Positions 1 through 12,705 of a stretch of 64,000 nt of DNA are shown piece after piece. The first letter of the stretch is position 1. The number at the start of each line of letters is the position of its first letter. The stretch is from a virus: positions 11,524 through 75,523 of the IMG/VR virus record IMGVR_UViG_3300044912_000492. The stretch is one strand, 5' to 3'. The translations under genes were made by a program, and so were the position numbers. The notes under the pieces were generated by a model. That model made no database searches. It was not told the DNA's origin and saw nothing but the letters and a program-made list of their open reading frames with translations.

Positions 1-39
1 CTATAAATTGTAATAGTCAATATATAAACGATTAGTGTT

Positions 40-67
40 TTGACTGCTTTAAACACAACACTATAAG
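40..67 (+). promoter_or_regulatory. candidate sigma70-type promoter (TTGACT-16 nt-TATAAG) upstream of XRE-like gene
   Basis: TTGACT at 40-45 and TATAAG at 62-67, read by eye. Confidence 0.3.
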
Positions 68-128
68 CAAAAGCTATATAATTTGTAACAGCTATAGATT
101 ATAATACAAGCAGTTTACGGACAAGGAG

Positions 129-335
129 ATGATACTAAGGCTTAAGGAACTAAGAGAGCGTAACGGATTAACTCAAGTACAACTATCTGAATCAACCAAA
201 ATCGGAGTGCAAAACATTGCCAAGATGGAACAAGGACGATCCGAATTCTTTCGTCGCAAGCACATTGATATTTTTTGCAGTGCGCTTAATTGTAGTGCTG
301 GTGAACTTATAGAGGCGGAAAAGATTAAATTATGA
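129..335 (+). CDS. XRE-family helix-turn-helix transcriptional regulator
   Basis: 68 aa; 'LKELRERNGLTQVQLSESTKIGVQNIAKMEQG' is a classic HTH_3/Cro-CI pattern. Confidence 0.75.
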   Translation: MILRLKELRERNGLTQVQLSESTKIGVQNIAKMEQGRSEFFRRKHIDIFCSALNCSAGELIEAEKIKL

Positions 336-484
336 GTGACACAGAAAAACAACCCACACCGCAAACCCGTATACCGATCGTTGTCACGTCGCAACGTGTA
401 GAAGATCGGTATAGAGTGGATGCATCAAAGACTAAGGCTAAAGATATGGGTGCTAGTTCTAGGATTTTGAGGTTGTTTGAGTAA
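332..484 (+). CDS. small hypothetical protein (50 aa), translationally coupled
   Basis: ATGA start/stop overlap with the XRE gene; below the ORF-track size cutoff; translated by hand. Confidence 0.35.
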   Translation: MSDTEKQPTPQTRIPIVVTSQRVEDRYRVDASKTKAKDMGASSRILRLFE

Positions 485-501
485 AATTACAAGGCAAAAC
501 A

Positions 502-696
502 ATGTATAGATTTTTAACTAACTTTCGATGGATTCGCAAATCAGCAGGAAAGAATTGGAGGCTTTTGGATTCTTCTTTTTTGGTTGATGGCAGTAAGCCT
601 ACTTGGTACAACTGGGATATTGTTGCAGCAGATCCTACCATGATGAAAATGATCAATGTTGGATATATCACCATTTTGAAGAGTGAGAGTTATTGA
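502..696 (+). CDS. hypothetical protein (64 aa)
   Basis: Stop TGA (694-696) overlaps ATG (696-698) of the next gene, suggesting coupling; no recognisable motif. Confidence 0.25.
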   Translation: MYRFLTNFRWIRKSAGKNWRLLDSSFLVDGSKPTWYNWDIVAADPTMMKMINVGYITILKSESY

Positions 697-1331
697 TGAC
701 GCTAGTTGATTGGGAGATACAGCACAGATGCGGCGATCGCTCTTACGTTCCGCAATGGTGGAATTTAAAGGCATTGGCTTATAAATACTTTGTGCCATGC
801 CCTAAAAATCCAATGATTGCACCATACGATCCAAGCTTAGTTAATGCTGCTAGCTATGATTTGGAGTTGGGCGACACATTAAAAATCGCTAGAATTGTCG
901 AATACAAGACTGAGTATTTTGCTGTCAATGGCGTTACTCACTCAATGCGAGTCCCTCTAAAGCCTACGGAATGGATAGACATTGATTTATCAACTGGCTT
1001 TGAATATTGGATGCAAGATAACGATTTTATCTTGAGTGAAACAGAGCCGATCTTTCACATTCCCAGAAATGTATCCGCACAATTTGCACTCAAATCGTCA
1101 AGAGGTAGAGAAGGTTACGAACATGCATTAGCAGGATACATAGATCCCGCTTGGCATGACAGTAAGCTGACTGTTGAGCTTCACAAGATTAATCCTAATC
1201 CTGTGGTTTTGTACAAAGGCTTAAAGATTGGTCAAATCATTTTCACTAAAACTAATTCACAGCCGATCCATGCCTATGATGTGCGTGGTAGATATAACAA
1301 AGACAGTCAAGTACAGGTGAGTAAGGGATGA
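696..1331 (+). CDS. dcd: dCTP deaminase / dUTPase-superfamily enzyme
   Basis: 'AASYDLELGD' and 'GYIDPAWHDSKLTVELHKINPNPVVLYKGLKIGQIIF' match the Dcd pattern G-IDxG..G..TLE..N...P..L..G..IGQ..F; ATG at 696 preferred over TTG at 693. Confidence 0.75.
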   Translation: MTLVDWEIQHRCGDRSYVPQWWNLKALAYKYFVPCPKNPMIAPYDPSLVNAASYDLELGDTLKIARIVEYKTEYFAVNGVTHSMRVPLKPTEWIDIDLSTGFEYWMQDNDFILSETEPIFHIPRNVSAQFALKSSRGREGYEHALAGYIDPAWHDSKLTVELHKINPNPVVLYKGLKIGQIIFTKTNSQPIHAYDVRGRYNKDSQVQVSKG

Positions 1332-1570
1332 GCAAATGGACGTATCGAATCTCAAAGCAAACTCTCGCAAACGGTGATGAGGTGTTTGCTATTCGTGAAT
1401 TTTATCCCAATAGCAAGGGAGAGTTAACAAGCTGGAGTGCTAACGAGATTACGCCTGTGGGTTTGACGCTGGAGGATCTAAAAGGTGAGTTAGCGCTGAT
1501 TATGCAATGTTTGGATAAGGAAGTGATTGATATTGGAGGTGAAGATAATGGCACAGGACGAGTGGCTTAA
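1328..1570 (+). CDS. hypothetical protein (80 aa)
   Basis: ATGA overlap with dcd stop; operon context. Confidence 0.5.
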   Translation: MSKWTYRISKQTLANGDEVFAIREFYPNSKGELTSWSANEITPVGLTLEDLKGELALIMQCLDKEVIDIGGEDNGTGRVA

Positions 1571-2132
1571 CATTGGACTATGCGGCGCACATGGCACAGG
1601 CAAAACGACATTAGCGATCGCTTTGTCGCAAAAGCTAGGGATTCCGTATATTCCCATTGATGCGAGTGAAGTATTTACAGATCATGGTTTTCACCCGTCC
1701 GATAAGCTTGATATTCGCACTCGCTTATTTTTGCAACAAAAGATTTTAGAGAAAGCTGAGAATATCTGGTTTGATGTTGATGAGCCTAGTTTTATCTGCG
1801 ATCGCACACCTCTTGATATGGCTGCTTATTTGCTTGCTGATGTTGGCAATGGTGAGTTAGATAAGCGCACTCAAATTGAGATTATGGACTATTTGCAAGA
1901 TTGCTTTAATGTCACGATTCAGTTTTTTGACAAAATTGTATTAGTCCCTCCTGCGATCGCTTTTGTTGAGCGTGAGTACAAAGCGGCGATCAATCAGCCG
2001 TTAATCTTTAAGCTTCACGCTTTGCTTTTAGGAATGCTTAACACTTTGGATGTGTCTTACAAGGTGTTGCCACAAGACTGCTTAGAGATAAGCGATCGCG
2101 TCCAGTTTGTTGAAGATTTTATGAGAGAGTAA
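1548..2132 (+). CDS. P-loop NTPase, probable nucleotide/nucleoside kinase (NadR/AAA_28-like)
   Basis: Walker A 'GAHGTGKTT'; 'FICDRTPLDMAAYLL' resembles the kinase substrate-lid region; GGAGG sits 8 nt upstream of ATG 1548. Confidence 0.6.
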   Translation: MAQDEWLNIGLCGAHGTGKTTLAIALSQKLGIPYIPIDASEVFTDHGFHPSDKLDIRTRLFLQQKILEKAENIWFDVDEPSFICDRTPLDMAAYLLADVGNGELDKRTQIEIMDYLQDCFNVTIQFFDKIVLVPPAIAFVEREYKAAINQPLIFKLHALLLGMLNTLDVSYKVLPQDCLEISDRVQFVEDFMRE

Positions 2133-2134
2133 CT

Positions 2135-3115
2135 ATGTTTCAGCCACAAGCCAAAATTATCGCTGATTCCGTTAATCCTTGCGGCGATCGCTTAACTACT
2201 TTTGTATTAACCTATCACCGTCTAGTGCATAGTGAATTTCTCACACATAGAATGCTAAGCAAGAATAGCTCTAGCAGCCGTGCGATACCAGTAGAAAAGA
2301 TGATCGCTAAAGTTATTGAAGACAATGTATTCCCACTAGAATTTGGCAAAAATCAAAAGGGGATGACTGCAAAAGAATCCGTAGATGATGCAGCGATCGC
2401 CGCATCTATGAAGACATGGCAAAAAGCGCGGCTAGATGCTATTGACCACGCATGGGCATTACATAAACAAGGTGTTCACAAACAAGTCGTAAATCGCCTA
2501 TTAGAGCCATTCTCTAGCATTACCGTAATCTGCACTGCTACCGAGTATCAAAACTTCTTTGCTCAGCGTTGCCATCCTGATGCTCAGCCTGAAATACAAG
2601 CTTTGGCGATCGCCATGCGTGAAGCCTATGAAGCAAGCGAACCAGACCAATTAGAAGACGGAGACTGGCATATACCATTTTTGGGTGAAGACGAAAAAAA
2701 CGATGATGGAGAATTTGTTGCTAGTGAAGCTGAATTGCAATGGCATAAAAACTTGATTGGCAAGGTCACAGACAATGATTTTATCAAAATCGCAACTGGG
2801 CGGTGTGCTAGAGTTTCCTATCTCAATCATGATGGCATTCGCAACATTCAAGACGATATCAAACTGCATGATCGCCTACTTAGCTCTAAACCACCGCACC
2901 TATCACCATTTGAGCATTGTGCTATGGCATTAGGTGAGAGCGAGGCAAGAGCTAACTTTGTTGGCTTTGAGTCATATCGGTATCAGTTAGAGCATAACTA
3001 CGAACCGACAGAAGCAGAAATAGCTATTTTGTCCGCTACTGAAGAAGAGATTTTGCAAATGCAAAGTAGATTTAAAGATATTTCAATTGAAACATTACCA
3101 AGGCGCAAAAGATGA
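2135..3115 (+). CDS. thyX: ThyX-like flavin-dependent thymidylate synthase
   Basis: 'THRMLSKNSSSSRA' fits the ThyX signature (R)HRx7SxR; 326 aa, longer than typical ThyX. Confidence 0.65.
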   Translation: MFQPQAKIIADSVNPCGDRLTTFVLTYHRLVHSEFLTHRMLSKNSSSSRAIPVEKMIAKVIEDNVFPLEFGKNQKGMTAKESVDDAAIAASMKTWQKARLDAIDHAWALHKQGVHKQVVNRLLEPFSSITVICTATEYQNFFAQRCHPDAQPEIQALAIAMREAYEASEPDQLEDGDWHIPFLGEDEKNDDGEFVASEAELQWHKNLIGKVTDNDFIKIATGRCARVSYLNHDGIRNIQDDIKLHDRLLSSKPPHLSPFEHCAMALGESEARANFVGFESYRYQLEHNYEPTEAEIAILSATEEEILQMQSRFKDISIETLPRRKR

Positions 3116-3354
3116 AAAAATCTGAACTAAGAGAAGGCGCTAGAGTGTTTGTCGCTAATGTTGTTTATATTCAGCAAACACGGATTGATCAAGTAACTCA
3201 AGGTAAAAGGCTAGGGATTATTTTTGATGCTAACGTGATTACGCAAGATCGCGTTAGCAAGATACTTGTTAAATTTGATGATTGCGAAAAACCTCAACTA
3301 GTAGTTTTGCAAAGGTTGCGATTAGAAAAAACAATGGAGCATAACAATGACTAA
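3112..3354 (+). CDS. hypothetical protein (80 aa)
   Basis: ATGA overlap with thyX stop. Confidence 0.5.
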   Translation: MKKSELREGARVFVANVVYIQQTRIDQVTQGKRLGIIFDANVITQDRVSKILVKFDDCEKPQLVVLQRLRLEKTMEHNND

Positions 3355-3460
3355 TGAAGAAATTAATCTTGCTGTTGCCTTGATCTCAGGATGAACACAG
3401 ATTGAGCGGTATGGCTTTATAGGGTAAAATAAAAACACCGTAGATGTACGAGAAATATTT

Positions 3461-3982
3461 ATGTATGGGATAGAAACTGAAGACAAAACTACAGCTTTAG
3501 CTAGTGCGCTTAGTTACTGGATTTTTCGCTGTAGGGATAAGGCTAAAAGCCCTGCGATGGGACTTAAAACATGGGAATACTTTCAGAGCAGTATCCAAAA
3601 TGCTGCTATTCCCTCAAGAAGTATTGACGATTACATTGAGAATCTAGCCAAAAAACTAATCGTTGCACACCTCAATCCAAAAGAATGGACTCGCATAATT
3701 GCGCCTAATCAGGTGATTTTACGCGCTTCTCTTAATCCTGATGGCAGCATGGGAGACATTCAGCAAATTGATAGCGATCAACATTTGCAGTGGCTAGGAT
3801 GGCAAGACATTCTCAATTCGCTTAAGCCTGAAGGAATAGGCGATCGCCATATTCTCAATTTGTGCAAATCAAAACCGCATATTATTACTACCTATTGTCG
3901 CGTTCGATTTGAATGCGATCGCGCTTTGAATATTCCCGATGAACCAGAAAACACTCTAGATGTAGAGGCTAACAATGCTTAA
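3461..3982 (+). CDS. hypothetical protein; positional candidate for a Cas11-like small subunit
   Basis: 173 aa; 8-nt overlap with the Cas7-like gene start. cas11 precedes csf2 in type IV-B loci. No sequence motif recognised. Confidence 0.45.
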   Translation: MYGIETEDKTTALASALSYWIFRCRDKAKSPAMGLKTWEYFQSSIQNAAIPSRSIDDYIENLAKKLIVAHLNPKEWTRIIAPNQVILRASLNPDGSMGDIQQIDSDQHLQWLGWQDILNSLKPEGIGDRHILNLCKSKPHIITTYCRVRFECDRALNIPDEPENTLDVEANNA

Positions 3983-5153
3983 TTACAATCCCCACGATCG
4001 CCATAATATCAAGCTACATTTGCAGATTACTTTGCTACAGCCACTCTCACATATCAGTGAATCGGTAGGCAATCAGACGAATTTACGCACGATGAAAGTG
4101 ACAGACTTAGAGGGGAATCCCTCTGAGGTGTTTTGCCTATCTGGCAACTCCCTACGCAATCGTATTTTAAGGCGATGCGGTATTGATTCCTTCCTATCTC
4201 AAATCGGTGTACAAGTATCGCCAACGATGCACCATGCTTTATTTTGTGGCGGCGCGATTGATGGAGGCACGGGCAACGATTTGGATTTGGATAAAAAGAT
4301 CCGTCAGCTTTTGCCATGCCTATCAGTACTAGGAACTGCAAAACCAAAAGGCTTGTTTGGTGTTGGTGATGCTCAGATGGTGCATGGTCGGATCGCCGTT
4401 GGTGATGCGTATCTTGCCTGTGTAGAGAGCGCTGAATACATCTATCGACAATTTCCACCTGCGTTACCCATTGATGTTATTTCGGCGTTAGAGCAGATCG
4501 TTGATGGCAAGGATTTACAGCACTCGCAACGGGTTAATCAATGGCTAGGGATTGATACTAAAGTCAATCAATACGATCTCAAGGCTTTGCTTGATGAGTG
4601 GCTCCCATACTTAGGTGAGAAGTTGCGATATTACTCCGATTGGCTTACCTACAGCCAAAAAACGCGGCGCGATTCTCTTCACGATCCTAACTTTGCTAAG
4701 CACTTGATTGGTGCTAGTCCACAGCCAAAAATCGGACAGGGCGATCTTTTTGTAGTAGCTGATGATTCCCCCAAAAAGAAGCCAGAAAAAGAGAAATCGC
4801 AACAAATGATCATGGGTAATTGGCTACTCCAAACAGGTGCTACCTTATACAGCTATTGGAGCGCAAACGTCACCAGAATCGAAGAAGGATTTATTGCTGA
4901 TGCGTTACTCAAGTTTGCTGAATCGCCATATTTAGGCGGTCAATCTGGAACAGGTTGCGGATTATGCTCTATGCAATTTTGGTTTGAGACTGCTGACGGT
5001 GATCGCGGCGAGTTTATGACAATTACACCTCACGCGCAAAAACTAAGCGATCGCGCTTCTGAATCTCATGCAAGGTATAAAGAATATCTTGAAGATTACA
5101 AAGGGTTTCTAGCTGATTCCAAGAGCGATATCAGGAGTTTACTTAATGGGTAG
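3975..5153 (+). CDS. csf2: Cas7-family RAMP protein (Csf2-like, type IV)
   Basis: 'SHISESVGNQTNLRTMKV...FCLSGNSLRNRILRRCG...LFCGGAIDGG' resembles the Cas7 N-terminal pattern (ESVGN.T..RT ... SG.SLR..LR ... GG). Confidence 0.55.
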   Translation: MLNYNPHDRHNIKLHLQITLLQPLSHISESVGNQTNLRTMKVTDLEGNPSEVFCLSGNSLRNRILRRCGIDSFLSQIGVQVSPTMHHALFCGGAIDGGTGNDLDLDKKIRQLLPCLSVLGTAKPKGLFGVGDAQMVHGRIAVGDAYLACVESAEYIYRQFPPALPIDVISALEQIVDGKDLQHSQRVNQWLGIDTKVNQYDLKALLDEWLPYLGEKLRYYSDWLTYSQKTRRDSLHDPNFAKHLIGASPQPKIGQGDLFVVADDSPKKKPEKEKSQQMIMGNWLLQTGATLYSYWSANVTRIEEGFIADALLKFAESPYLGGQSGTGCGLCSMQFWFETADGDRGEFMTITPHAQKLSDRASESHARYKEYLEDYKGFLADSKSDIRSLLNG

Positions 5154-5155
5154 TA

Positions 5156-5205
5156 CAAACTATTTTAATTTATGTATTGCATAAATTAAAATAGTTTGCT
5201 ATATT
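5156..5205 (+). promoter_or_regulatory. perfect 19-bp inverted repeat overlapping a candidate promoter
   Basis: caaactattttaatttatg (5156-5174) / cataaattaaaatagtttg (5180-5198), 5-nt spacer. TTGCAT 5177-5182, 17-nt spacer, TATATT 5200-5205. Lies directly after the csf2-like stop. Confidence 0.45.
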
Positions 5206-5264
5206 GATATTCATGAGGCAAGGGCAGCCACCCAAACCTCACTCAAACCCACTAACACAAAGCC

Positions 5265-5810
5265 ATGAACACCAGCCAAATCGCACAAATCGCAACCTCA
5301 CTCAATGTCTCCCCAAACCAAATCAAAAGAGCCGAAGAATGGGCAAACGTTTTGTTCGTTGTGGTTGTTGGCAAGGGCTCTCGATTCGTATCCAAAAAGG
5401 TATTAAAAATGGAAATGACCCAAATGACCCGTTCGCAATTAGCCAAGAAGATCGCTGCCGATCTAGATTGTACTACCAAAATCTGGGAAAAAGGCGGCAA
5501 AGTCCGAGTTTATCTTTCCCATCGCGGCAAAGATTACGGATTTGTTGAAATCACCGCTAAGGGCGTAGAATTTGCGCTCACGGGCTATGCAAATAACGCT
5601 TATGGCTCCGATATCCGCAATTCGGCTGAGGGCATTGAAATCAACGAACCATCAGCAGTTGTAGGCGATGTCCGCCGCCTTACCAGTGAAGAAGCCGACC
5701 AACTAGCGGCAATGTCTCGCGGCAAAGCTAACGACACCGAACGCGCTCTAAATGCCATGTATGGCAGAGGCGGATGGGATCATTGGGATCGTGAAGATTA
5801 CGAAGGTTAG
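5265..5810 (+). CDS. hypothetical protein (181 aa)
   Basis: Long ORF downstream of the candidate promoter; no motif recognised. Confidence 0.55.
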   Translation: MNTSQIAQIATSLNVSPNQIKRAEEWANVLFVVVVGKGSRFVSKKVLKMEMTQMTRSQLAKKIAADLDCTTKIWEKGGKVRVYLSHRGKDYGFVEITAKGVEFALTGYANNAYGSDIRNSAEGIEINEPSAVVGDVRRLTSEEADQLAAMSRGKANDTERALNAMYGRGGWDHWDREDYEG

Positions 5811-5869
5811 AGACGAAGCGCCGCCCGTAGCGTCTAATACGGATAGTAAATATTATTCAAACAAAAAAA

Positions 5870-6040
5870 ATGAAAAGCTATCAAGAAGTACAGACTGAAG
5901 CAATTGCAATCTATGGATCTAATATTGCAGTTTTGCCAAAAGGTAGAAATGTTTTTGCATCCCGCGCCCAAGCATTCCTTTCATATTTAGGAGAGATCCA
6001 AGATGGTGAAGGGCATTCATATTTAATCTATAAAAAATAA
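5870..6040 (+). CDS. small hypothetical protein (56 aa)
   Basis: Hand-translated; TAATG stop/start overlap with the next gene at 6040; below ORF-track cutoff. Confidence 0.4.
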   Translation: MKSYQEVQTEAIAIYGSNIAVLPKGRNVFASRAQAFLSYLGEIQDGEGHSYLIYKK

Positions 6041-6237
6041 TGCCAGACCCTACCCCTCGCAATCCCAAAGGGGCAGGGCGCAAGCCTAGCCCCGACGAAC
6101 CGAAACCCACCCAGAGTTTTCGCTCCGATCCAGACATCAAAACCTATCTTGCCACCATCCCTACAGGCGAAAAAACCAGAATCATCAATCAAGCAATCAG
6201 AGAGTATATATTGAGGCAAAACCAATCACATGATTAA
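6040..6237 (+). CDS. small DNA-binding protein, ribbon-helix-helix-like
   Basis: Basic N-terminus 'NPKGAGRKPSP' and 'EKTRIINQAIREYIL' (CopG/Arc-like helix); overlaps the Cas5-like start by 8 nt. Confidence 0.45.
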   Translation: MPDPTPRNPKGAGRKPSPDEPKPTQSFRSDPDIKTYLATIPTGEKTRIINQAIREYILRQNQSHD

Positions 6238-6913
6238 TCTTCAAATAATCGCGCACATGGCAACGCCTCTCTTTGCCTATGATGATTGGTCGCCTAGCTT
6301 TGATGCTCTCATTGAATATCAATTGCTCGACTCACTAGGATTGATAGAGCCTAATCCCACAGAGGCAAGCATTATTAAAAATCTGCCATTGCTATTTGAG
6401 CAAATGCCGATCGCCCGAAAGATGCTAAATGGTGAATGGTATTGGGCGGTAAGCTCACCTCATTACATTGAAAATCATCAGCAAATTTCGCAATATGTAA
6501 AGCGCTGGGATAAGCAAGAATTACACCTTGATTTAAAAGGGAAACGCGGTAAATTTAGTGGTAGTGAAGGGCATTTTAAAGCTTATAAACTACCTAAATA
6601 CAACCGCGAAATGCAGACTATCCACTGGTTTTGTATTGGCGATGCAAATAAGATTAGTCAACTGATTCTAAATGTTTCGCACCTTGGCAAGAAGCGATCG
6701 CAAGGGTGCGGACAAGTCCATAAATGGGAGGTGCTACCGTTTGAGCATGATTGGCATTTGTGGCGCGGCGATAGTTTAGCCAGACCTATACCAGTTGGGA
6801 TGATTGAGCCGCCTCAAGCTATTAATATGATGAACTGGGGATGGCGACCGCCTACATGGTTGGCTGCTAATAAATCTATGTGCTATATGCCAACGGACAA
6901 CGTATGTCGATAA
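6230..6913 (+). CDS. csf3: Cas5-family RAMP protein (Csf3-like, type IV)
   Basis: N-terminal 'IIAHMATPLFAYDDWSPSFDALIEYQL' and C-terminal glycine-rich loop 'HLGKKRSQGCGQVHKWEV', typical of RAMPs. Confidence 0.55.
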   Translation: MINLQIIAHMATPLFAYDDWSPSFDALIEYQLLDSLGLIEPNPTEASIIKNLPLLFEQMPIARKMLNGEWYWAVSSPHYIENHQQISQYVKRWDKQELHLDLKGKRGKFSGSEGHFKAYKLPKYNREMQTIHWFCIGDANKISQLILNVSHLGKKRSQGCGQVHKWEVLPFEHDWHLWRGDSLARPIPVGMIEPPQAINMMNWGWRPPTWLAANKSMCYMPTDNVCR

Positions 6914-7653
6914 CTTTTGGTAGTGGACTAAATGCTAGATGGCTAACACGTAAACGCGACAATGCGATCGCCCTAATTACTGAATGGTTAAAGCTTTGCG
7001 ATTATCAAGTTTACGGCTCTATTTCGGGCGGCAAAGATTCGCTAGTTATGGCGCATCTGATTAGAGAAGTTTATCCAGATTGTCCGTTTCTATGGGTAAA
7101 TCAAGGACATTTAGCCGAATGGGATGATTGCGTAGAATTGCTTTATTACCTACGAGATGAACTCAAATGGAACATCATAGAACTATGCCCACCATTGGGA
7201 TTGATGCAGCTTTACCGCAAATTAGGTATGAGTTTTGATGGTCAGTTCAATGCTCTTGATAAAAAACAATGTCATGAACTTTTGCTATATCCGCTAAATG
7301 AATGGGCGGAAATGCATAACGCAAAAGGCTATGCATGGGGACTAAGGCAAGAGTCTAGAGGGCGCAAAGAATATTTGCGGTCTAACGGTTTGCTTTACAC
7401 AAAGAAAGATGGAATCGTTATTTGCTCTCCTATTGGCTTTTGGAAAACTGAGGATATTTGGCATTACATAGATTGGCAAAAGCTACCCTATGCCACTATT
7501 TACGATGTCGAAGGGCGCATGACTTTCCGTAATGGATGCCCTATCGATACAGCGCTTTCTAACTGGGGGCGTATGGCACACCTAAGAAAGAATTACCCCA
7601 AGATTTATTTTGAATTTGCTGAGCTATTTCCAGAGGTAAAAAACTATGCTTAA
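6904..7653 (+). CDS. PAPS reductase / CysH-like PP-loop enzyme
   Basis: PP-loop 'SISGGKDSLVMAHL'; ATG 6904 overlaps the csf3-like stop (the ORF track starts at 6880). Confidence 0.75.
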   Translation: MSITFGSGLNARWLTRKRDNAIALITEWLKLCDYQVYGSISGGKDSLVMAHLIREVYPDCPFLWVNQGHLAEWDDCVELLYYLRDELKWNIIELCPPLGLMQLYRKLGMSFDGQFNALDKKQCHELLLYPLNEWAEMHNAKGYAWGLRQESRGRKEYLRSNGLLYTKKDGIVICSPIGFWKTEDIWHYIDWQKLPYATIYDVEGRMTFRNGCPIDTALSNWGRMAHLRKNYPKIYFEFAELFPEVKNYA

Positions 7654-8287
7654 TTTTGACGATATCTCTATTGTGATTCGTACCGTATCAGCACATAGAA
7701 TGCACTTACTGCAAAGATTGCAACAACAATTGAAGCCTCTTGATTTTGTCATTTCTGATAGGTCGGACAGACAAAACACCTATGCTGATGATTGGTTTAA
7801 TGCAATGCGTAAAGGTCAAGATCAATCTAAAAAATGGCTAATCCATCTAGAAGATGACGCTTTTCTGTCACCTGATTGGAAGGTAAGCGTATTAAACCTT
7901 TTAAATCAAATCCCTTTAGATATTAAGGTCTGTTCGTTTTATTCTGGGAAAAGAATGAAGCAAGAATTTGAACATTTATCTAAACCACATTGGGAATACT
8001 TGCGTGGATCGTCTTTCTTTATGCACCAATGCACGACTTGGAAAATGGAGTACGTTGATTATTTTGTTGATGGAATAAAAAGCCAATGGGCTTCACATCC
8101 TGAATACAGAAAAATTGATTTTATTGATCAAGCCTTAATGGATTTTATGGTACAAAAAAAAGAAAAGTTTGCGCGAGTTTTCCCTAGTTTAGTCCAACAC
8201 ACAGGCGACAAAAGTTTGATTGGTCATGCAAACAGTAAAAGTCGTCAATCATCTAGTTTCACCTATTTTTATGGAGATACACCTTAA
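7646..8287 (+). CDS. glycosyltransferase-like protein (GT-A type, 'EDD' motif)
   Basis: 'ISIVIRT...' N-terminus and 'WLIHLEDDAFLSPDW' resemble the GT2/GT25 DxD region; weak. Confidence 0.3.
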   Translation: MLNFDDISIVIRTVSAHRMHLLQRLQQQLKPLDFVISDRSDRQNTYADDWFNAMRKGQDQSKKWLIHLEDDAFLSPDWKVSVLNLLNQIPLDIKVCSFYSGKRMKQEFEHLSKPHWEYLRGSSFFMHQCTTWKMEYVDYFVDGIKSQWASHPEYRKIDFIDQALMDFMVQKKEKFARVFPSLVQHTGDKSLIGHANSKSRQSSSFTYFYGDTP

Positions 8288-8760
8288 TGCCATTCATTAA
8301 AAAAGGAACATTGCTAGAAGATTGGCAGACAGCTAATCCTATAACTTTATTAGGCGATTTAGAATTGCCAGAATTGCCATCACTAAATAATTTTATTCAA
8401 AAAGAATATGGCGATCGCAACGGTGTAAAAGCAATCAATTACAACCGCAAAGACAAGAGCGCTCCTTATTTTGTTTGTTGCCGTGGCGCATGGAGAATGC
8501 ACACAGATCCAGGGTACAACCGATATGCACATCATGTAGTTTTAATGACTTGTAATGCAAAACTAACGGGCTATGCCGATAATTATGTTGTTAGAGTAGG
8601 ACAAGCTTTAATTATTGATTCTCATTCTCCCCACGCTTTAATGTCAATCGATCCTACTGAAGAAACATTTTTTTTATCTTTAGCTCAAGATTTAACAGAA
8701 AAAAATACTAATTTCATTAAAACAATTGACATTGAGAAATATTTAAATGAAATCAAATAA
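8287..8760 (+). CDS. hypothetical protein; possible HxD...H metal-binding (cupin/dioxygenase-like) fold
   Basis: 'RMHTDPG' ... 'DSHSPHAL' spacing resembles a 2-His-1-carboxylate triad; speculative. Confidence 0.4.
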   Translation: MPFIKKGTLLEDWQTANPITLLGDLELPELPSLNNFIQKEYGDRNGVKAINYNRKDKSAPYFVCCRGAWRMHTDPGYNRYAHHVVLMTCNAKLTGYADNYVVRVGQALIIDSHSPHALMSIDPTEETFFLSLAQDLTEKNTNFIKTIDIEKYLNEIK

Positions 8761-9421
8761 CTGCTATCTTTGCGCCGCCCCTAACGCGACAAAACCTTTA
8801 GCCCTTAAGAACACCTTTACAAGTCATAATGCCGCTAGATGTCCTGATTCTAAGTATCTATGCGATCGCTGTGCATGGTGTATTCCGTTAAGGGCTTTTT
8901 ATTGGAATGAAACCAAGGGTAAGTACAGCGCGATCTATTCCCGCAACTGGTCATGGTTACTTTCTGCTAATGATGCTTACGGCTCTTATCCTAAATTTGG
9001 TAATCAACATACTGAAGGGAAAGACACGCTAGAGATAGTTGATCGCCTTCCTACTCGCTCTCAAATTAGGGCATGGTTGCTTGATCCACCAAAGCCGCCC
9101 TTCACTATTTGCATTGCCGAATCAGGGCAAAAGCATATATTACCGTGGGCACTAGAAGCCAATAATCGCGATTATTTTCCAGTGCAATTTGAGCTTGATA
9201 CTTTGCACATTTATCGATCTGCTTTTACCCATTTGCTCACACGATATGAAGAGCTTATGGCTATGGGATTTAGCAAAACTGAAATCAATAGCGGTAACTA
9301 TCGAAGCGACAAATTAGCTAAGTGCATCAGTGAATATGCATCATGTGAGGCTGTGATTGCTGCTAAACGTGGTAATCGGTTGCTGGATTTGGTAAGCTAT
9401 GTCGCAAAAGTATCAGAGTAA
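8747..9421 (+). CDS. Cys-rich protein, Csf1-like (type IV large-subunit analogue) candidate
   Basis: N-terminal 'CYLC...(22 aa)...CPDSKYLCDRCAWC' zinc-finger pattern; ~224 aa; lies in the locus with Cas7/Cas5/CysH-like genes. Confidence 0.45.
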   Translation: MKSNNCYLCAAPNATKPLALKNTFTSHNAARCPDSKYLCDRCAWCIPLRAFYWNETKGKYSAIYSRNWSWLLSANDAYGSYPKFGNQHTEGKDTLEIVDRLPTRSQIRAWLLDPPKPPFTICIAESGQKHILPWALEANNRDYFPVQFELDTLHIYRSAFTHLLTRYEELMAMGFSKTEINSGNYRSDKLAKCISEYASCEAVIAAKRGNRLLDLVSYVAKVSE

Positions 9422-9440
9422 GATATGGCAGACAGTAAAC

Positions 9441-10154
9441 ATGAAAAACTGTATATTTTGCAAGAAAGAATTTGATGAAGCTAAAACAAAACGGCTTTGC
9501 TGTACTAGATCATGTGCAGCAAAGTTTTCCACAGAAAAGAAAGGCGGATCAGCATGGAAACAAGAAGAGATCGAATATCTTGAAGATAATCTTGGTGTTT
9601 TACCTTTTCCTGTATTGGTTAAATCCTTTAAGAAATGGTCTAAAAAACAAGGCTACTCAGAACGGACAGATACTGCGATAGAAGTTCAAATCCATCGCAT
9701 GACATCTAACTCGCCCTTAAGCCGCAAATGCACTGAAGACAATTTTACTGTGTACGAACTGTCGAGAGGGTTAGGCTTATCAATGGATCGGGTTCGCTTA
9801 TTTGTCCGCAATGGGAAATTGCAACCCCGCAAAATTGCCAGAAATCAGAATGCAGTTAAACGTAAAGACGCGATCGCCTTGGTACTAAACAATCCATCGT
9901 ATTTTGCTAACTGCGATCGCGATAATCTGTTTTGGCTATTGGAAGATAACAAACTGGTTGAGAAAGTGAAAAGTGTGGAACCATCAACTAGAGGTTTTCG
10001 CCGTGCTGTACGTTGTTATGCTCCTGATGGAATTAGAGAATATTCAGGCGTAAAAGAAGCAGCTAGGGCTAATTTTGTTACGCATAACTGTATATCCCAA
10101 GCGATCGCTAGGGGTGGCAAAAGCGCTGGTATAAAATGGGAATGGGTGGAGTGA
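9441..10154 (+). CDS. DNA-binding protein (Zn-ribbon N-terminus, HTH, NUMOD-like C-terminus)
   Basis: 'CIFCKKEF...CCTRSC'; 'YELSRGLGLSMDRVRLFVRNGKL' (MerR/excisionase-like HTH); C-terminal 'EYSGVKEAARANFVTHNCISQAIARGGKSAGIKWEW' resembles the NUMOD1 motif of homing-endonuclease DNA-binding modules. Confidence 0.5.
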   Translation: MKNCIFCKKEFDEAKTKRLCCTRSCAAKFSTEKKGGSAWKQEEIEYLEDNLGVLPFPVLVKSFKKWSKKQGYSERTDTAIEVQIHRMTSNSPLSRKCTEDNFTVYELSRGLGLSMDRVRLFVRNGKLQPRKIARNQNAVKRKDAIALVLNNPSYFANCDRDNLFWLLEDNKLVEKVKSVEPSTRGFRRAVRCYAPDGIREYSGVKEAARANFVTHNCISQAIARGGKSAGIKWEWVE

Positions 10155-10193
10155 TTATTGCTAAACTATTAGCAAAATTACACTCACAAAATT

Positions 10194-10484
10194 ATGGCAG
10201 CTAAAAAAGATCCGCGCCTTGCTAAAGCTGGAGTTGATGGCTATAACAAACCAAAGCGCACTCCTAAGCATCCTACTAAGTCTCATGTAGTTGTCGCTAA
10301 AGAAGGTACAGAAGTGAAATTAATTCGTTTTGGTGAACAAAGTGCAGAGACAGCAGGGAAACCCAAAGAAGGTGAATCTGAAGCGATGAAAGCTAAACGA
10401 GAAGCATTTAAAGCGCGTCATGCCAAGAATATCGCTAAAGGTAAGATGAGTGCAGCTTGGTGGTCTTCGGTTACGAAATGGTGA
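10194..10484 (+). CDS. conserved small basic phage protein
   Basis: 'YNKPKRTPKHPTKSHVVVAK...FKARHAKNIAKGKMSAAWW' resembles a widespread viral family; own terminator downstream. Confidence 0.5.
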   Translation: MAAKKDPRLAKAGVDGYNKPKRTPKHPTKSHVVVAKEGTEVKLIRFGEQSAETAGKPKEGESEAMKAKREAFKARHAKNIAKGKMSAAWWSSVTKW

Positions 10485-10490
10485 TCAAAA

Positions 10491-10529
10491 AAAAGGAGTT
10501 ATTACGGATTGTAATAACTCCTTTTTTTT
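10491..10529 (+). terminator. rho-independent terminator
   Basis: 15-bp perfect stem aaaaggagttattac / gtaataactcctttt, loop ggatt, followed by a T-run. Confidence 0.8.
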
Positions 10530-10648
10530 GATTCTGGTAATGCACTGAAAGCTATATGTATTAACAGATTGAGGCGAAAAAGTGGTAAAATATTAGAAGC
10601 GAATCGCAAGGTTTGAAGGTGCGATCGCTGAATCCACATTACCTAAAC

Positions 10649-11542
10649 ATGGTAGATAACATGGCTAAAGATATTATTACATTAGATCGTAACGGAGTTC
10701 AGGTTGAGATCGAAGGGATCAAGGTTGACTTACCTATCAAAGCTATAAGGGATCTCCCTTTGGCTGGGGATGTCTATTTGATTAAATGCTGTCAGTTTTA
10801 CAAAATTGGCGCGTCTGCACAGATTAAAAAGAGGATCGCCGCTATCCAGTCTATCGTCCCGTTTGATGTTCAGATCATTGATTCTTTTCTTTCGTGTGAT
10901 GTTTTCCAAGACGAGAAAAAGATACATCGTTTATGTTCTGAGTTTAATGTCAAAAATGAGTGGTTTCTTTTGCCAGATTCTTTTGTTAAAAATAGGGCAA
11001 GATGGTTTAAACCGTCTGTATCTCCAATCCCACAAATCAAACAAGGGATCGCCAAATATATGAAAGCGGTTGACGATGAAAGCGGCGTTTTCTCAGAGCT
11101 AACAGGAAGTTTAATTTATAGACCTAAGCCCGACAAAGAACTCATGAGAAATTGTTTTTTACTAAACACTGAGATTAGTACTCAGATTATTGCGGCTCAT
11201 TTCAATGTTGATGTAGCCGAAGTCCATAACAATCGCTATCGTGGCTTGTATCGCAAAAACGCAACTCAACTCAGAGAAGAAGCAGGGCTTAAAAAGTCTG
11301 AGACTCCTCTGGATCGCCTATCTGCTTATGACTTGAATTTAAACAGCTTGGCTAACCAAATGGCTTTGATGTCTGGTGATTCTGGTAAGGTGTTAGATGC
11401 GGCGATCGGGTTGCGTCAATTGCATGAGCAAACTGTCGGCAAACCATTAGAGCCAACATGGGAAGAAAAGCATTTAAGACCTAATCAAGCTAAAGCGATC
11501 GCCTATTCCCCTGAATACCAAACTGAGCTACCAGTAAGCTAA
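10649..11542 (+). CDS. T5orf172 (MUG113/GIY-YIG-like) domain protein
   Basis: 'GDVYLIKCCQFYKIGASAQIKKRIAAIQSIVPFDV...DEKKIHRLCSEFNVKNEWFLLP' fits the T5orf172 pattern; start uncertain (10613 TTG, 10649 or 10661 ATG). Confidence 0.55.
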   Translation: MVDNMAKDIITLDRNGVQVEIEGIKVDLPIKAIRDLPLAGDVYLIKCCQFYKIGASAQIKKRIAAIQSIVPFDVQIIDSFLSCDVFQDEKKIHRLCSEFNVKNEWFLLPDSFVKNRARWFKPSVSPIPQIKQGIAKYMKAVDDESGVFSELTGSLIYRPKPDKELMRNCFLLNTEISTQIIAAHFNVDVAEVHNNRYRGLYRKNATQLREEAGLKKSETPLDRLSAYDLNLNSLANQMALMSGDSGKVLDAAIGLRQLHEQTVGKPLEPTWEEKHLRPNQAKAIAYSPEYQTELPVS

Positions 11543-11548
11543 AATCAT

Positions 11549-11582
11549 TCGCGCTCTGTGATAGCGATATCACAGAGCGCGA
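11549..11582 (+). terminator. 15-bp perfect hairpin after the T5orf172 gene (terminator-like, no strong T-run)
   Basis: tcgcgctctgtgata / tatcacagagcgcga with loop gcga. Confidence 0.4.
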
Positions 11583-11618
11583 TAATGCTAGAATCGCTGT
11601 AAATTCGTATGTTGATTT

Positions 11619-12266
11619 ATGCCAAAGAAAAAAGCTAAGCTCTCAGATTTTCGTATTCAAGAAAAAAATCTCAATAAACACAAACCCCGTGGTATGGGAC
11701 AGCTATCCAATATCATCTCAAAGGAAGGATGGCAGTCTGCAATCACTGTCGCGAACGACAATCAAGCATTTAGCGGTAGTGCAAGATTAGAGACAGCACA
11801 AGAGCTATTTGGTGATGAAGCAGAGCCTATCGTATTTGATATTGATGGTACACGCCCCGTAATCCTTAGACGGGTTGATATTCCCACTGCTGACGATCCA
11901 AGGGCTATCAGATTAGGCATTGCAGATAATCGCATTAGTGAGGTTAACTACGATTTAGATATTGATCTACTACAAGAGACAGCGCAAATAATCGACATCA
12001 GCGATCTATATTTTGACGATGAACTTGCAAAATTAGCAGAGCAAAAGCAGGAAATCATCGACTATCAAGAGCCTGATTTTCTCAAGTTTTCAGATAACAA
12101 TGACTTACCAGCATACGCAACCGATCGCAGTGGTGGCAATAAGCAACCTATACCCATAGTCGTTGGTAGTCGCACTATGCAAAGATGGAATGAATATAAG
12201 GAAAGTATTGGGATAAAAAATGATACGGCGGCGTTTGAAATGCTGCTAGAATCTCAAGAGATCTAA
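11619..12266 (+). CDS. ParB-like nuclease/N-terminal domain protein
   Basis: 'NLNKHKPRGMGQLSNIISKEGWQSAITV...FSGSARLETAQEL' and 'LGIADNRISEVNYDLDIDLL' resemble the ParBc domain seen in phage ParB-methylase fusions; no methylase domain present. Confidence 0.5.
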   Translation: MPKKKAKLSDFRIQEKNLNKHKPRGMGQLSNIISKEGWQSAITVANDNQAFSGSARLETAQELFGDEAEPIVFDIDGTRPVILRRVDIPTADDPRAIRLGIADNRISEVNYDLDIDLLQETAQIIDISDLYFDDELAKLAEQKQEIIDYQEPDFLKFSDNNDLPAYATDRSGGNKQPIPIVVGSRTMQRWNEYKESIGIKNDTAAFEMLLESQEI

Positions 12267-12276
12267 GGTGATTATT

Positions 12277-12702
12277 ATGCTGCGATCGCTAGACAACAGT
12301 AATGGTATTCAATATTACGGTGGGAATGATCCCGCAAAGATGAGTGGTAGATTCAAGAAGGGAGGATCAACGGGGGGGGGATCTAACTCGGTAGGCAAAT
12401 CAAAAACGAGTAATTTTGTTTTAGGATTAAAAAAACAGGTTTCTGATACTGCTAAATATATTGGAAGTCGTACTAATAAGCCTGAATTAATTAGAATGGC
12501 AGTTCAAAATACTAAGAATAATTTGATTGACAAAGCGACAACTGATATTAAGCGCGGAAATCAAAGATTGACTACAAAGACTAAGATTGATTCTAATATT
12601 CGCAGACAAAAACGCGCCATGACTTCAGGTGATATTTCTCGTAATGCTAGTATTCAATCCGCTAGACTTGAGACGCAAGGTCAACTCAATCTTTTGAGAT
12701 AA
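12277..12702 (+). CDS. Gly-rich basic protein, paralog 1
   Basis: N-terminus 'MLRSLDNSNGIQYYGGNDPAKMSGRFKKGGSTGGG' is near-identical to the N-terminus of the 13928 gene; ATG 12277 chosen by paralog alignment. Confidence 0.6.
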   Translation: MLRSLDNSNGIQYYGGNDPAKMSGRFKKGGSTGGGSNSVGKSKTSNFVLGLKKQVSDTAKYIGSRTNKPELIRMAVQNTKNNLIDKATTDIKRGNQRLTTKTKIDSNIRRQKRAMTSGDISRNASIQSARLETQGQLNLLR

Positions 12703-12705
12703 AAC

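Follow-up and report, generated by a model that had tools for sequence, protein, structure and literature searches.

Positions 3461-9421 of the window, by which the whole 64-kb stretch of DNA that was analysed is meant, very probably hold all the effector genes of a type IV-B CRISPR-Cas module (cas11-csf2, csf3-cysH-like and csf1). Type IV-B is a known system that is still without a function, to which the phage described here adds a further carrier. The features of the locus are listed in Table 1.

Table 1. Features of the type IV-B locus, in positions of the window
Feature	Position	Strand	Description
cas11	3461-3982	+	173 aa; type IV small subunit
csf2 (type IV Cas7)	3975-5153	+	392 aa
inverted repeat	5156-5198		perfect 19-bp AT-rich arms, 5-nt loop, directly 3' of the csf2 stop
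p181	5265-5810	+	cargo cassette csf2/csf3
p56	5870-6040	+	cargo cassette csf2/csf3
p65	6040-6237	+	cargo cassette csf2/csf3
csf3 (type IV Cas5)	6230-6913	+	227 aa
cysH-like (CasCysH-type)	6904-7653	+	249 aa; PP-loop ATP pyrophosphatase homologue
GT-like	7646-8287	+	213 aa; cargo between cysH and csf1
p157	8287-8760	+	157 aa; cargo between cysH and csf1
csf1 (type IV large-subunit-like)	8747-9421	+	224 aa; N-terminal 4-Cys zinc ribbon

The core genes and their products

A sequence-only reading of this DNA had proposed a Cas7/Csf2, a Cas5/Csf3, a PAPS-reductase/CysH homologue and a Csf1, as well as a gene in the place of cas11 upstream of the Cas7-like gene. All of its ORFs were found, on the + strand, and the motifs that it had quoted (ESVGNQTNLRTMKV, LSGNSLRNRILRR, CGGAIDGG, GKKRSQGCGQVHKWEV, SGGKDS and, in the 224-aa protein, CxxC...CxxC) are all present in the translations. 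Its assignments hold in the profile searches that it had suggested as a check, in which type IV models match Cas11, Csf2, Csf3 and Csf1, and PAPS_reduct matches the CysH-like protein, at E-values that chance does not explain; the similarity to Cas7 and Cas5, on which it had made the identification depend, is borne out for the 392-aa protein by the profile and structural matches and for the 227-aa protein by the profile matches given below. Neighbouring starts and stops overlap by 8 nt (cas11/csf2, p65/csf3 and cysH/GT), 10 nt (csf3/cysH), 1 nt (GT/p157) and 14 nt (p157/csf1), and the longest ORF of the cysH-like gene begins at GTG 6880. Csf2, Csf3 and Csf1 miss the NCBIfam equivalog cut-offs, which indicates that these Csf proteins are divergent.

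Cas11 is matched by PADLOC typeIV_Cas11 (5.8e-14 and 1.2e-11) and by the ORF upstream of Cas7 on the Gloeobacter plasmid pGMOR1, and is present in all relatives, at 44-91% identity. Csf2 is matched by PADLOC typeIV_Cas7 (Csf2_0_IV, 6.7e-43) and, under the cut-off of the family, by NCBIfam TIGR03115 (7e-6), and a profile search of the PDB returned type IV Cas7 chains only (11fs 3e-8, 7jhy 6.9e-7, 8rc2 1.7e-6). A Foldseek search with its AlphaFold (AF2) model (pLDDT 83, pTM 0.80) retrieved first the Csf2 chains of 8rc2, 8s35, 8rc3 and the 7xg entries (to 1e-13), then Csm3 and then 7jhy. The protein is a long form of Csf2, with some 70-90 additional residues that form a helical insertion (about 155-230) and with a disordered loop at 247-275; canonical Csf2 proteins of ~300 aa align to it in two stretches only. 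The inverted repeat behind csf2, after which sequence inspection found no clean T-run, is possibly a weak terminator or an RNA processing site.

Csf3 is matched by PADLOC typeIV_Cas5 (Csf3_0_IV, 4.5e-40), by NCBIfam TIGR03116 over its full length (2.1e-15, under the cut-off) and, in the precomputed Pfam annotation, by PF27782 Csf3; with tblastn it finds pGMOR1 (3e-35) and also the IV-B plasmids of Rhodococcus and Mycobacterium sp. JS623. The CysH-like protein is matched by Pfam PAPS_reduct (1.5e-14) and by the E. coli PAPS reductase (1sur/2o8v, 5e-5). Its PP-loop, SISGGKDS, is intact; it lacks a C-terminal cysteine of the ECGLH type, and Cys213 is not conserved in one relative (L034). Every homologue found in viral contigs, with identities as low as 43%, lies inside a Csf locus; two different CysH clades share the same position, directly after csf3, and the clade of the window occurs only in Csf loci. 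Finally, Csf1 is matched by PADLOC typeIV_Cas8 (Csf1_0_IV, 1.5e-25), by NCBIfam TIGR03114 (1.3e-10, under the cut-off) and by an ORF of pGMOR1, and the cysteines of its zinc ribbon, C7/C10 and C39/C42, are conserved in the relatives and in the Csf1 of JS623.

Purifying selection on the five core genes is strong, with dN/dS of 0.04-0.15 at dS 0.6-1.4 (cas11 0.08-0.14, csf2 0.04-0.07, csf3 0.11-0.15, cysH-like 0.045, csf1 0.12-0.14), and the genes are kept, in shuffled order, across phage lineages whose Cas7 identity falls to 43%. Selection and retention together indicate that all five are functional.

Genes between the cas genes

The five genes that lie between the cas genes are strain-specific cargo outside the conserved module. 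Profile searches gave no significant family match for p181, p56 and p65, a cassette that most relatives with Cas7 identities of 88-96% do not have and that in L023 (Cas7 96% identical) lies 3' of csf1 instead. Among the relatives the GT-like/p157 pair occurs only in L023, and the slot between cysH and csf1 is elsewhere empty (L007) or filled by Cas6 (L047), a cupin or a Coq4-like gene; in L043 the variable slot holds a SpoU methylase and a phosphatase. The GT-like protein is matched by the glucosyltransferase family phrog_854 (9.6e-10) and, under the cut-off, by Pfam GT2 (0.0085). Only 7 homologues of p157, one of them from Microcoleus, were found among 5.8 billion proteins; it carries an HxD...H motif. 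The atypical split architecture described in the sequence-only reading stems from this cargo and does not characterise the system itself, since the interspersed genes are missing or relocated in close relatives.

The phage and its cyanobacterial setting

The reconstructed genome, that of a tailed phage, totals ~75.4 kb, the ~11.4 kb beyond the window corresponding to L032:1-9384 and L001:4015-6026. That the locus is carried by a cyanophage, as had been claimed, is supported by phage hallmark genes, by a strong cyanobacterial signature in the DNA, an excess of HIP1 (GCGATCGC; 85 copies counted, 0.72 expected), by identical or near-identical proteins in Cyanobacteriota and Pseudanabaena MAG bins, and by the NblA and XisA/C-like genes of relatives. 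HIP1 sites also fall within the cas genes (3840, 3915, 5047, 6694, 6964 and 8862), at about the genome-wide density, which indicates a long residence of these genes in the phage. The module lies inside a 16-kb co-directional block that extends from a Cro-like HTH gene, by way of dcd, AAA_28 and thyX, to the terminase, so the nucleotide-metabolism genes noted earlier as neighbours do adjoin it; the HTH gene, of Cro/CI type, stands at a divergent switch region. The sole SF1 helicase of the genome (32234-33811; Dda/RecD-like) belongs to the replication module, 23 kb from the csf locus.

Arrays and Cas6 in the window phage and its siblings

No CRISPR array was found in the window with Tandem Repeats Finder, a repeat finder and a k-mer scan, nor in the remaining ~11.4 kb, and an HMM built from the Cas6 proteins of relatives found no match in the window, L001 or L032. 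Likewise, cas1, cas2, cas4 and dinG were found neither among the proteins scanned, which include part of the small ORFs, nor in the precomputed Pfam tables. The reported lack of array, cas1/cas2, cas6 and DinG therefore extends to the whole genome for array and Cas6, and to the genes scanned for the others.

Arrays and Cas6 do, however, occur in part of the phage clade to which this locus belongs, which bears on the mechanism. Cas6, a dedicated repeat-RNA endonuclease, is encoded by L030, L037, L043, L047 and L050/51 and on pGMOR1 (Pfam 1e-51 to 1e-53; PADLOC 1e-34 to 1e-56), as well as by a sister clade (L011/13/14/16/18/19/20/25); in L047, whose CysH is 93% identical to that of the window, it occupies the exact slot of GT-like and p157. 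No array was found within 10 kb of the locus in these siblings. The L028 lineage carries an array with a 37-nt repeat 0.85 kb from csf1, in which at least 4 different spacer sets, between flanks that are 89-98% identical, have a trailer-end spacer in common; this points to polarised spacer turnover. In viral and JGI metagenome collections the repeat was found in phage contigs only and in no host-like contig, and no protospacers were found for the spacers of the related arrays. Some relatives (L026/L027) keep only truncated fragments of Cas7 and Cas5. The natural variation among close relatives could help to work out the function of type IV-B.

Proposed mechanism and alternative explanations

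The best explanation overall, identity and mechanism taken together, has an even chance of being correct. Its mechanistic part, held a little more tentatively, is that a non-nucleolytic Csf ribonucleoprotein might be loaded with crRNAs that reach it in trans and might have the CysH-like ATP pyrophosphatase for its effector. We infer the following steps. Upon infection, Csf2 and Cas11 would build intertwined filaments on small RNA, like those of the solved IV-B structure, capped by Csf3 and Csf1. The natural ligand would be Cas6-processed crRNA, as suggested by near-identical Csf sets with a bona fide Cas6 in siblings and by the array of the L028 lineage; in the window phage it would have to be provided in trans, most plausibly scavenged from host CRISPR loci. 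Having neither nuclease nor helicase, the complex would bind complementary nucleic acid and leave it uncleaved, and the CysH-like protein, with its SGGKDS PP-loop and no catalytic cysteine, may hydrolyse ATP at the alpha position to adenylate or otherwise modify the complex or its target. The phage could benefit by depleting host effector complexes of crRNAs, or by silencing crRNA-specified targets such as rival phages.

Some observations count against crRNA use and at the same time favour a possible, if rather unlikely, alternative in which the Csf proteins would form filaments on non-CRISPR RNAs, heterogeneous or specific (transcripts of phage or host, or small RNAs), independently of any guide and, with the CysH-like protein, modify, protect or sequester RNA in phage RNA/nucleotide metabolism or host takeover. 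The only biochemical data on IV-B show that the JS623 complex bound heterogeneous small non-CRISPR RNAs and not the co-expressed I-E crRNAs (PMC7937560; summarised in PMC8175902). The window phage has neither array nor Cas6. The alternative is further favoured by the position of the csf locus next to dcd, AAA_28 and thyX and by the enzymes of the RNA or small-molecule type (SpoU methylase and phosphatase, cupin, Coq4-like) in the variable slot of relatives. The missing host-like contigs for the L028 repeat, the lack of protospacers and the absence of arrays near sibling Cas6 also speak against a crRNA mechanism. However, if crRNA were not used, it would be difficult to account for the recurrence of Cas6 in many siblings and for one live array, and heterologous expression may have given rise, as an artefact, to the RNA found with JS623 Csf.

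The remaining alternatives are improbable to different degrees. Type IV systems are generally regarded as weapons between mobile elements (PMC7038947, PMC8730458), and a resident phage might likewise express the module to protect its lysogen or exclude superinfection, as plasmid type IV systems act against rival plasmids. Such host-benefiting defence, which is improbable, would fit the XisA/C-like recombinases of some relatives, suggestive of temperate lifestyles, and the HTH gene at the switch region, but none of the proteins of the genome that were scanned was recognised as an integrase, the genes sit in a long rightward block leading to the terminase rather than in the position of a moron expressed during lysogeny, and a phage without an array lacks a target specificity that it could itself pass on. 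A considerably smaller chance is given to a DNA hypermodification cluster, in which the CysH-like and GT-like proteins, p157, dcd and thyX would jointly produce a modified base, the presence of the Cas-like proteins being incidental. PAPS-reductase homologues function in DNA phosphorothioation and BREX, the CysH-like protein has weak PADLOC matches to BrxP (1.3e-5) and SspD (6e-4), and the glucosyltransferase-like gene, dcd and thyX are close by; yet GT-like, p157 and thyX are missing from close relatives that keep csf3-cysH, the CysH-like protein lacks a conserved catalytic cysteine and was found only in Csf loci, and the AF2 model of p157 (pLDDT 37) assigns it no fold. The least credible reading sees in the module the non-functional remains of a CRISPR-Cas locus that was captured and is now in decay, as the missing array, Cas6 and adaptation genes and the truncated fragments of L026/L027 might suggest. 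None of the five ORFs is disrupted, their starts and stops overlap, the core genes are conserved over deeply diverged phages, and the dN/dS values contradict decay.

Comparison with known systems

Interference by type IV-A is crRNA-guided and non-nucleolytic, and its crRNAs are processed by Cas6, as would also apply to the sibling phages. Type IV-A structures (Csf1-3, Cas6/Csf5, DinG; PDB 8rc2, 8rc3, 7xg0) are the best structural matches of the window Cas7 model, whereas the window has no array and, among the genes scanned, no DinG, but has Cas11 and a CysH-like gene. Among viruses, the Bathyarchaeia 'Fuxivirus', compared by description, encodes a IV-B system in which a cysH-like gene adjoins csf3 and an adaptation module is missing, and for which a role in counter-defence or mobile-element conflict has been proposed (PMC10848311); unlike the window phage, it is an archaeal virus and has a two-repeat mini-array.

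The plasmid pMYCSM03 of Mycobacterium sp. JS623 (PDB 7JHY; PMC7937560) shares with the window csf1, cas11, csf2 and csf3, the CxxC...CxxC motif of Csf1, carriage on a mobile element and the lack of array, Cas6, helicase and nuclease; 7jhy was found by both profile search and Foldseek, and phmmer relates Csf2 (3e-7) and Csf3 (1.3e-9) of the two. It differs in being an actinobacterial plasmid rather than a tailed cyanophage, while the window has a Csf2 that is ~100 aa longer, with its helical insertion, proteins below the equivalog cut-offs and the order cas11-csf2 / csf3-cysH / csf1 with cargo between. The cysH-like gene is a signature of IV-B according to the literature; in JS623, an HMM search found none at up to 5 kb from the csf genes. 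Closest among cellular homologues of all five proteins is an unannotated Csf locus on pGMOR1 of Gloeobacter morelensis (NZ_CP063846.1, ~77.4-82.5 kb; phmmer cas11 2.7e-40, csf2 2.9e-98, csf3 1.1e-41, cysH-like 1e-10, csf1 4.5e-58), which likewise has a cyanobacterial host and in which no adjacent array was found. In contrast to the window, it is plasmid-borne, with Cas6 between csf2 and csf3, a cupin between cysH and csf1, and a CysH of the other clade, with the motif VSWGKDS.

Gene content of the locus

The genes of the locus lie exactly where the sequence-only reading had placed them, all on the + strand of the ORF map, and every peptide motif that it quoted is found in the translations. Start/stop codon overlaps join most genes across 3461-9421, with cas11 directly upstream of csf2 and overlapping it, and with the cysH-like gene overlapping the stop codon of csf3. 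The protein families proposed in that reading are borne out by profile searches, in which the Csf1, Csf2, Csf3, Cas11 and PAPS_reduct families were all matched significantly.

Genes of the type IV-B locus and their family matches
Gene	Window coordinates	Strand	Length (aa)	Family match
cas11 (type IV)	3461-3982	+	173	PADLOC typeIV_Cas11 5.8e-14
csf2 (type IV Cas7)	3975-5153	+	392	PADLOC Csf2_0_IV 6.7e-43
p181	5265-5810	+	181	
p56	5870-6040	+	56	
p65	6040-6237	+	65	
csf3 (type IV Cas5)	6230-6913	+	227	PADLOC Csf3_0_IV 4.5e-40
cysH-like, PAPS-reductase family	6904-7653	+	249	Pfam PAPS_reduct 1.5e-14
GT-like	7646-8287	+	213	
p157	8287-8760	+	157	
csf1	8747-9421	+	224	PADLOC Csf1_0_IV 1.5e-25

In precomputed Pfam tables, Csf3 is assigned to PF27782 and Csf1, faintly, to PF27781, and the four-cysteine CxxC...CxxC ribbon of Csf1 is conserved in the relatives and in Csf1 of JS623, the Mycobacterium sp. 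with a solved IV-B complex (PDB 7JHY). The NCBIfam models TIGR03114, TIGR03115 and TIGR03116 give 41.3, 25.5 and 57.0 bits, respectively, which indicates significant homology far short of the curated equivalog cut-off (130-140 bits); given the distance from that cut-off, the Csf proteins are divergent members, too divergent for automatic naming. Single-sequence phmmer searches reach the JS623 proteins (Csf2 at 3e-7, Csf3 at 1.3e-9) and connect all five proteins of the module with an unannotated Csf locus on pGMOR1, a Gloeobacter morelensis plasmid (E 1e-10 to 2.9e-98).

Further Csf3-like genes occur in some of the related viral contigs, which carry L-numbers here. L034/L035 (L034:12692-14711) have a second, divergent one of 207 aa that matches the PADLOC Csf3 model (4.9e-26) with its C-terminal half only and adjoins a thymidylate synthase-pterin-binding fusion, and L036 has another divergent second copy (7972-8697). 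The locus of L048 (172-7444) reads cas11-csf2-csf3-cysH-csf3-csf1 ... csf3-cysH-csf1, with Csf3 present three times and CysH and Csf1 twice each.

For Csf2, a profile made from a 28-sequence alignment of metagenomic homologues retrieves only type IV Cas7 chains from the PDB (11fs "Cas7c", 3e-8; 7JHY IV-B Csf2, 6.9e-7; 8RC2 IV-A Csf2, 1.7e-6). A structural comparison with an AlphaFold2 monomer model of Csf2 (pLDDT 83, pTM 0.80) puts type IV Csf2 structures first: the best 17 Foldseek matches are all of this kind, led by IV-A3/IV-A1 Csf2 (E down to 1e-13), followed by type III-A Csm3 and then by 7JHY. Homologues of this Cas7 form 187 clusters at 90% identity, nearly all on phage-size metagenomic contigs, and 863 matches come from an exhaustive search of 1.84 billion representatives with a profile, with the long form (380-415 aa) in only about 20 clusters; matches from the 50%-cluster and word-index searches come as proteins without genomic context. 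Canonical Csf2 proteins of about 300 aa align to that of the window in two stretches, which shows that Csf2 of this clade has a helical insertion.

The CysH-like protein

The sequence-only reading is also upheld in recognizing a CysH-like enzyme by its PP-loop. The protein aligns with E. coli PAPS reductase (1SUR and 2O8V, 5e-5) and keeps the canonical SISGGKDS motif, while an ECGLH-type C-terminal cysteine is absent, the only late cysteine (213) not being conserved in the nearest clade member. An intact PP-loop in combination with loss of the catalytic C-terminal cysteine has been proposed to define CasCysH (PMC8175902). Two CysH clades are found among the relatives, each directly after csf3: the window-type clade, every IMG/VR member of which found here sits inside a Csf locus, and a second one with a VSWGKDS motif, about 26% identical to that of the window, in a sister clade with 88-92% identical Cas7. 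This arrangement argues for a specific link between CysH and Csf, and not for a generic phage PAPS reductase.

Absence of an array and of other cas genes

The window, together with L032:1-9384 and L001:4015-6026, covers the full phage genome, and no CRISPR array is present in any part of these 75.4 kb, which extends to the whole genome what the sequence-only reading had reported. Searches for mini-arrays or solitary repeats with short seeds in 3000-10500 return chance-level pairs only, the repeat of the array in the related phage L028 does not occur in the window even with three mismatches allowed, and Rfam at gathering thresholds matches no RNA family in the locus, CRISPR repeats included. 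The sequence-only reading had also reported no cas6, cas1, cas2 or DinG; here, a Cas6 HMM has no match in the window, L001 or L032, PADLOC finds no Cas6/Csf5 in the locus, and cas1, cas2, cas4 and dinG are missing from about 50 scanned proteins and from the precomputed Pfam tables. DinG (IV-A/E), RecD (IV-D) and the Cas10-like HD protein (IV-C) are not found in 1-14000.

A Dda/RecD-like SF1 helicase (32234-33811, - strand) was considered as a type IV RecD and rejected; the typeIV_RecD match (1.3e-20) covers the helicase core only, other SF1 models and the PHROG Dda family (2.2e-82) score better, and the gene lies in the replication module.

The phage genome and its host

The window encodes a large terminase, portal, major head protein, tape measure protein, and DnaB-like and Dda-like helicases, as expected of a tailed phage. 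The portals of Synechococcus siphoviruses share about 23% identity with that of the window, and DNA (blastn) and protein (tblastn) searches with the locus and Cas7 give no match in 50,697 GenBank phage genomes. This phage is only remotely related to known phages and is without a close sequenced relative. The exact Cas7 of the window also occurs on a 75,667-bp JGI contig, for which a terminal overlap of about 271 bp can be deduced from how L001 and L032 line up with the window; the genome would then be circular or permuted and about 75.4 kb long. An exact search of IMG/VR with the end of the window gave no match.

The host was assigned from a sequence signature and metagenomic binning. The octamer HIP1 is a signature of cyanobacterial genomes. 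It occurs in the 64 kb 85 times as GCGATCGC, against 0.72 expected from shuffles, and is spread throughout the genome including the cas genes (for example at 733, 1614, 3840, 5047, 6694 and 8862). MAGs of Cyanobacteriota and Pseudanabaena include, among their binned sequences, identical or near-identical proteins, NblA and XisA/C-like genes are present in relatives, and the nearest cellular homologues come from Gloeobacter and from a Dolichospermum MAG contig. A cyanobacterial host is supported by these signals.

Other features of the genome were also noted. Just upstream of the terminase, a radical-SAM-like gene of 414 aa (12706-13950, CxxxCxxC) is found between two paralogous, small glycine-rich proteins (12268-12702 and 13892-14338) with the common N-terminal block LDNSxGxQYYGGNDPxKMSGRFKKGG, and the region 12268-14338 could be a peptide-modification cassette. 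In the replication region, ORF 30624-31745 (- strand) contains five perfect tandem copies (31238-31358) of the 24-nt unit TCATTTCGACTTGAGGTCGATCTC, which would encode an 8-aa repeat, and two GIY-YIG endonuclease-like genes lie beside the Dda/RecD-like helicase, with a Dam-type methyltransferase further along (33808-34760 and 24003-24560, both - strand). A full-length abiF RNA motif (Rfam RF03085, 56763-56799, + strand; 49.7 bits, gathering score 37) follows shortly after ORF 56349-56738 and neighbours a T5orf172/MUG113 gene (55247-55849). No tRNAs were found. Outside the window, L032:3367-3467 (= L001:548-648) holds, in an intergenic stretch, two 50-nt direct repeats in tandem that are 84% identical to each other and not CRISPR-like.

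Conserved core and variable cargo among related phages

About 15 distinct lineages were collected and scanned with HMMs built in this analysis, each locus being read within 10 kb on either side. Cas11, Cas7, Cas5, CysH and Csf1 are kept even where Cas7 identity falls to 43%, and their order varies from the compact cas11-csf2-186 aa-csf3-cysH-csf1 of L007 to the compact canonical csf3-cysH-csf1-cas11-csf2 of L034. The sequence-only reading had described an atypical split architecture in the window; genes do lie between the core genes, as it said, but relatives whose Cas7 is 88-96% identical lack p181/p56/p65 and GT-like/p157, and in L023 GT-like/p157 occupy the same site while p181/p56/p65 follow csf1 instead. 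The interspersed genes of the window are, on this comparison, cargo. Searches of PDB sequences with the GT-like protein and p181 give no meaningful match, and the structure prediction for p157 has a pLDDT of 37 (8 sequences). An HxD...H motif in p157 had pointed to a 2OG/cupin-type oxygenase; that idea is unsupported, and a cupin HMM from relatives gave no match to p157.

The gap between cysH and csf1 is a hot spot across lineages: it is empty in L007, holds Cas6 in L047 (where CysH is 93% identical to that of the window), and elsewhere holds a cupin or a Coq4-like gene. In L043 (12761-18964; Cas7 55% identical), an SpoU-type RNA methyltransferase and a tyrosine-phosphatase-like gene lie between csf3 and cysH, Cas6 follows cysH, and an AcrVA2-like gene is located between Cas6 and csf1. 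The sister clade with the other type of CysH also has a cupin or Coq4-like gene and Cas6, and no Csf1 within 10 kb. Close relatives thus exchange modules. All that L026/L027 (9881-11635) retain is a C-terminal fragment of Cas7 (residues 274-392, 97% identical) together with a truncated Cas5, and the module has apparently decayed in such lineages.

A 224/225-aa ORF that follows Cas6 in the sister clade was examined as a possible Csf1 and ruled out, being acidic and having neither the zinc ribbon nor a PADLOC match.

Cas6 and arrays in sibling phages

A genuine Cas6 (Pfam 1e-51 to 1e-53; PADLOC 1e-34 to 1e-56) is encoded in at least six phage lineages and on pGMOR1, with no array within 10 kb in any of them, and a homology search with Cas6 of L047 returns 11 metagenomic proteins only, none from a named host. 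An array does occur in L028, a 95-kb, NblA-bearing phage with 45% identical Cas7, where it lies 0.85 kb from csf1, its repeats being 37 nt and its spacers 33-37 nt long. In variants of L028 from other samples the position of the array is unchanged, at least four unrelated spacer sets occur, and the csf1-proximal spacer is common to L028 and L052, which together point to polarised spacer turnover in the lineage. The spacers of the L028, L040, L052 and L055 arrays have no significant match in any related locus collected, and three of the array spacers have none in an exact search of IMG/VR, so that no protospacer was found. The repeat occurs, within IMG/VR and JGI metagenomes, only in contigs of the L028 lineage. 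In L028 (15763-21131), the phycobilisome degradation protein NblA is encoded between csf1 and the array, and a TnpB/Cas12f-like protein about 4 kb further along. The repeat families flagged by a k-mer scan in L007 and L019 are not CRISPR arrays.

Possible mechanism and alternative explanations

The phage genome contains a complete IV-B set under selection, with neither array nor Cas6, and the cysH-like gene has an intact PP-loop and lacks the catalytic cysteine. In such a complex, as modelled on class 1 effectors and the 7JHY structure (PMC7937560), filaments of Csf2 and Cas11 would intertwine along a small RNA and be capped by Csf3 and Csf1. The bound RNA may be a Cas6-processed crRNA supplied in trans, a reading each step of which we infer and which we favour tentatively, since siblings encode near-identical complexes alongside Cas6 or, in one case, alongside a live array. 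Complementary nucleic acid would be bound by the complex but not cut, with the CysH-like ATP pyrophosphatase in the role of effector. For the phage, the gain might be that host crRNAs are drained away or that whatever those crRNAs specify as target is silenced. The main rival, doubtful in our judgement, is guide-independent RNA binding, which has been observed for the heterologously expressed JS623 complex. A pathway of DNA modification is a less likely role.

For all five core genes, dN/dS against close relatives is 0.04-0.14 (dS 0.6-1.4), and HIP1 density inside them is similar to that of the whole genome, so that the module is, by these measures, old, resident and functional; gene decay is a less likely account of it. 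The module lies within a 16-kb co-directional block that starts with a Cro-like HTH gene by a divergent cluster and continues through dcd, AAA_28 and thyX to the terminase, which suggests expression during lytic development; defence of a lysogen is a less likely function. A wider version of the preferred trans-crRNA reading, improbable as a whole, would hold that an undescribed IV-B clade, almost restricted to cyanophages and varying in the presence of Cas6, array and Csf1 and in which of the two CysH clades it carries, captures crRNAs from CRISPR loci of the host or of co-infecting elements. The phage Csf complex would then either act as a multi-subunit crRNA sponge that disarms the CRISPR immunity of the host or turn host immune memory against rival phages, with the CysH-like enzyme marking the bound nucleic acid. 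If true, trans-crRNA capture would be the first defined biological role for subtype IV-B.

Comparison with known type IV systems

Alone among the CRISPR-Cas subtypes, IV-B has no reported function in the literature searched, and both its RNA ligand and the role of its invariably linked CysH-like enzyme are described as unknown (PMC7038947, PMC8175902, PMC8730458). The sibling phages provide a natural experiment in this respect, as near-identical Csf proteins occur in loci that may have or lack Cas6 and Csf1, that use either of two CysH clades and that differ in the enzymes placed between cysH and csf1, and one lineage has a live array; this variation makes testable the loading of Cas6-processed crRNA, the source of the crRNA and the job of the CysH-like enzyme. 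It is for these natural contrasts that the wider clade is a more interesting lead than the window alone. The full IV-B set is under strong purifying selection in a widespread freshwater cyanophage lineage, and in cellular genomes the lineage is represented by one match, to its Cas7, among 185,579 species representatives and by one Gloeobacter plasmid. No paper on IV-B in cyanophages or on the clade of the window was found in the literature.

The type IV-B-like assignment of the sequence-only reading is sustained. A Csf2-type Cas7, the type-defining protein of type IV, is present, as are the Cas11 small-subunit gene typical of IV-B and an adjacent cysH-like gene with the traits of IV-B CasCysH; every compositional trait that could be scored is that of IV-B, save the NCBIfam equivalog cut-offs; for adaptation genes, none was seen among some 50 scanned proteins and in the Pfam tables. 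Plasmids, prophages, "some free phages" and an archaeal virus have already been described as carriers of type IV systems, IV-B among them (PMC7038947, PMC8730458, PMC10848311), so that a phage-borne IV-B locus is not new in kind. By its gene content, the locus is best described as a divergent, phage-borne addition to a known subtype, and not as a new kind of system.
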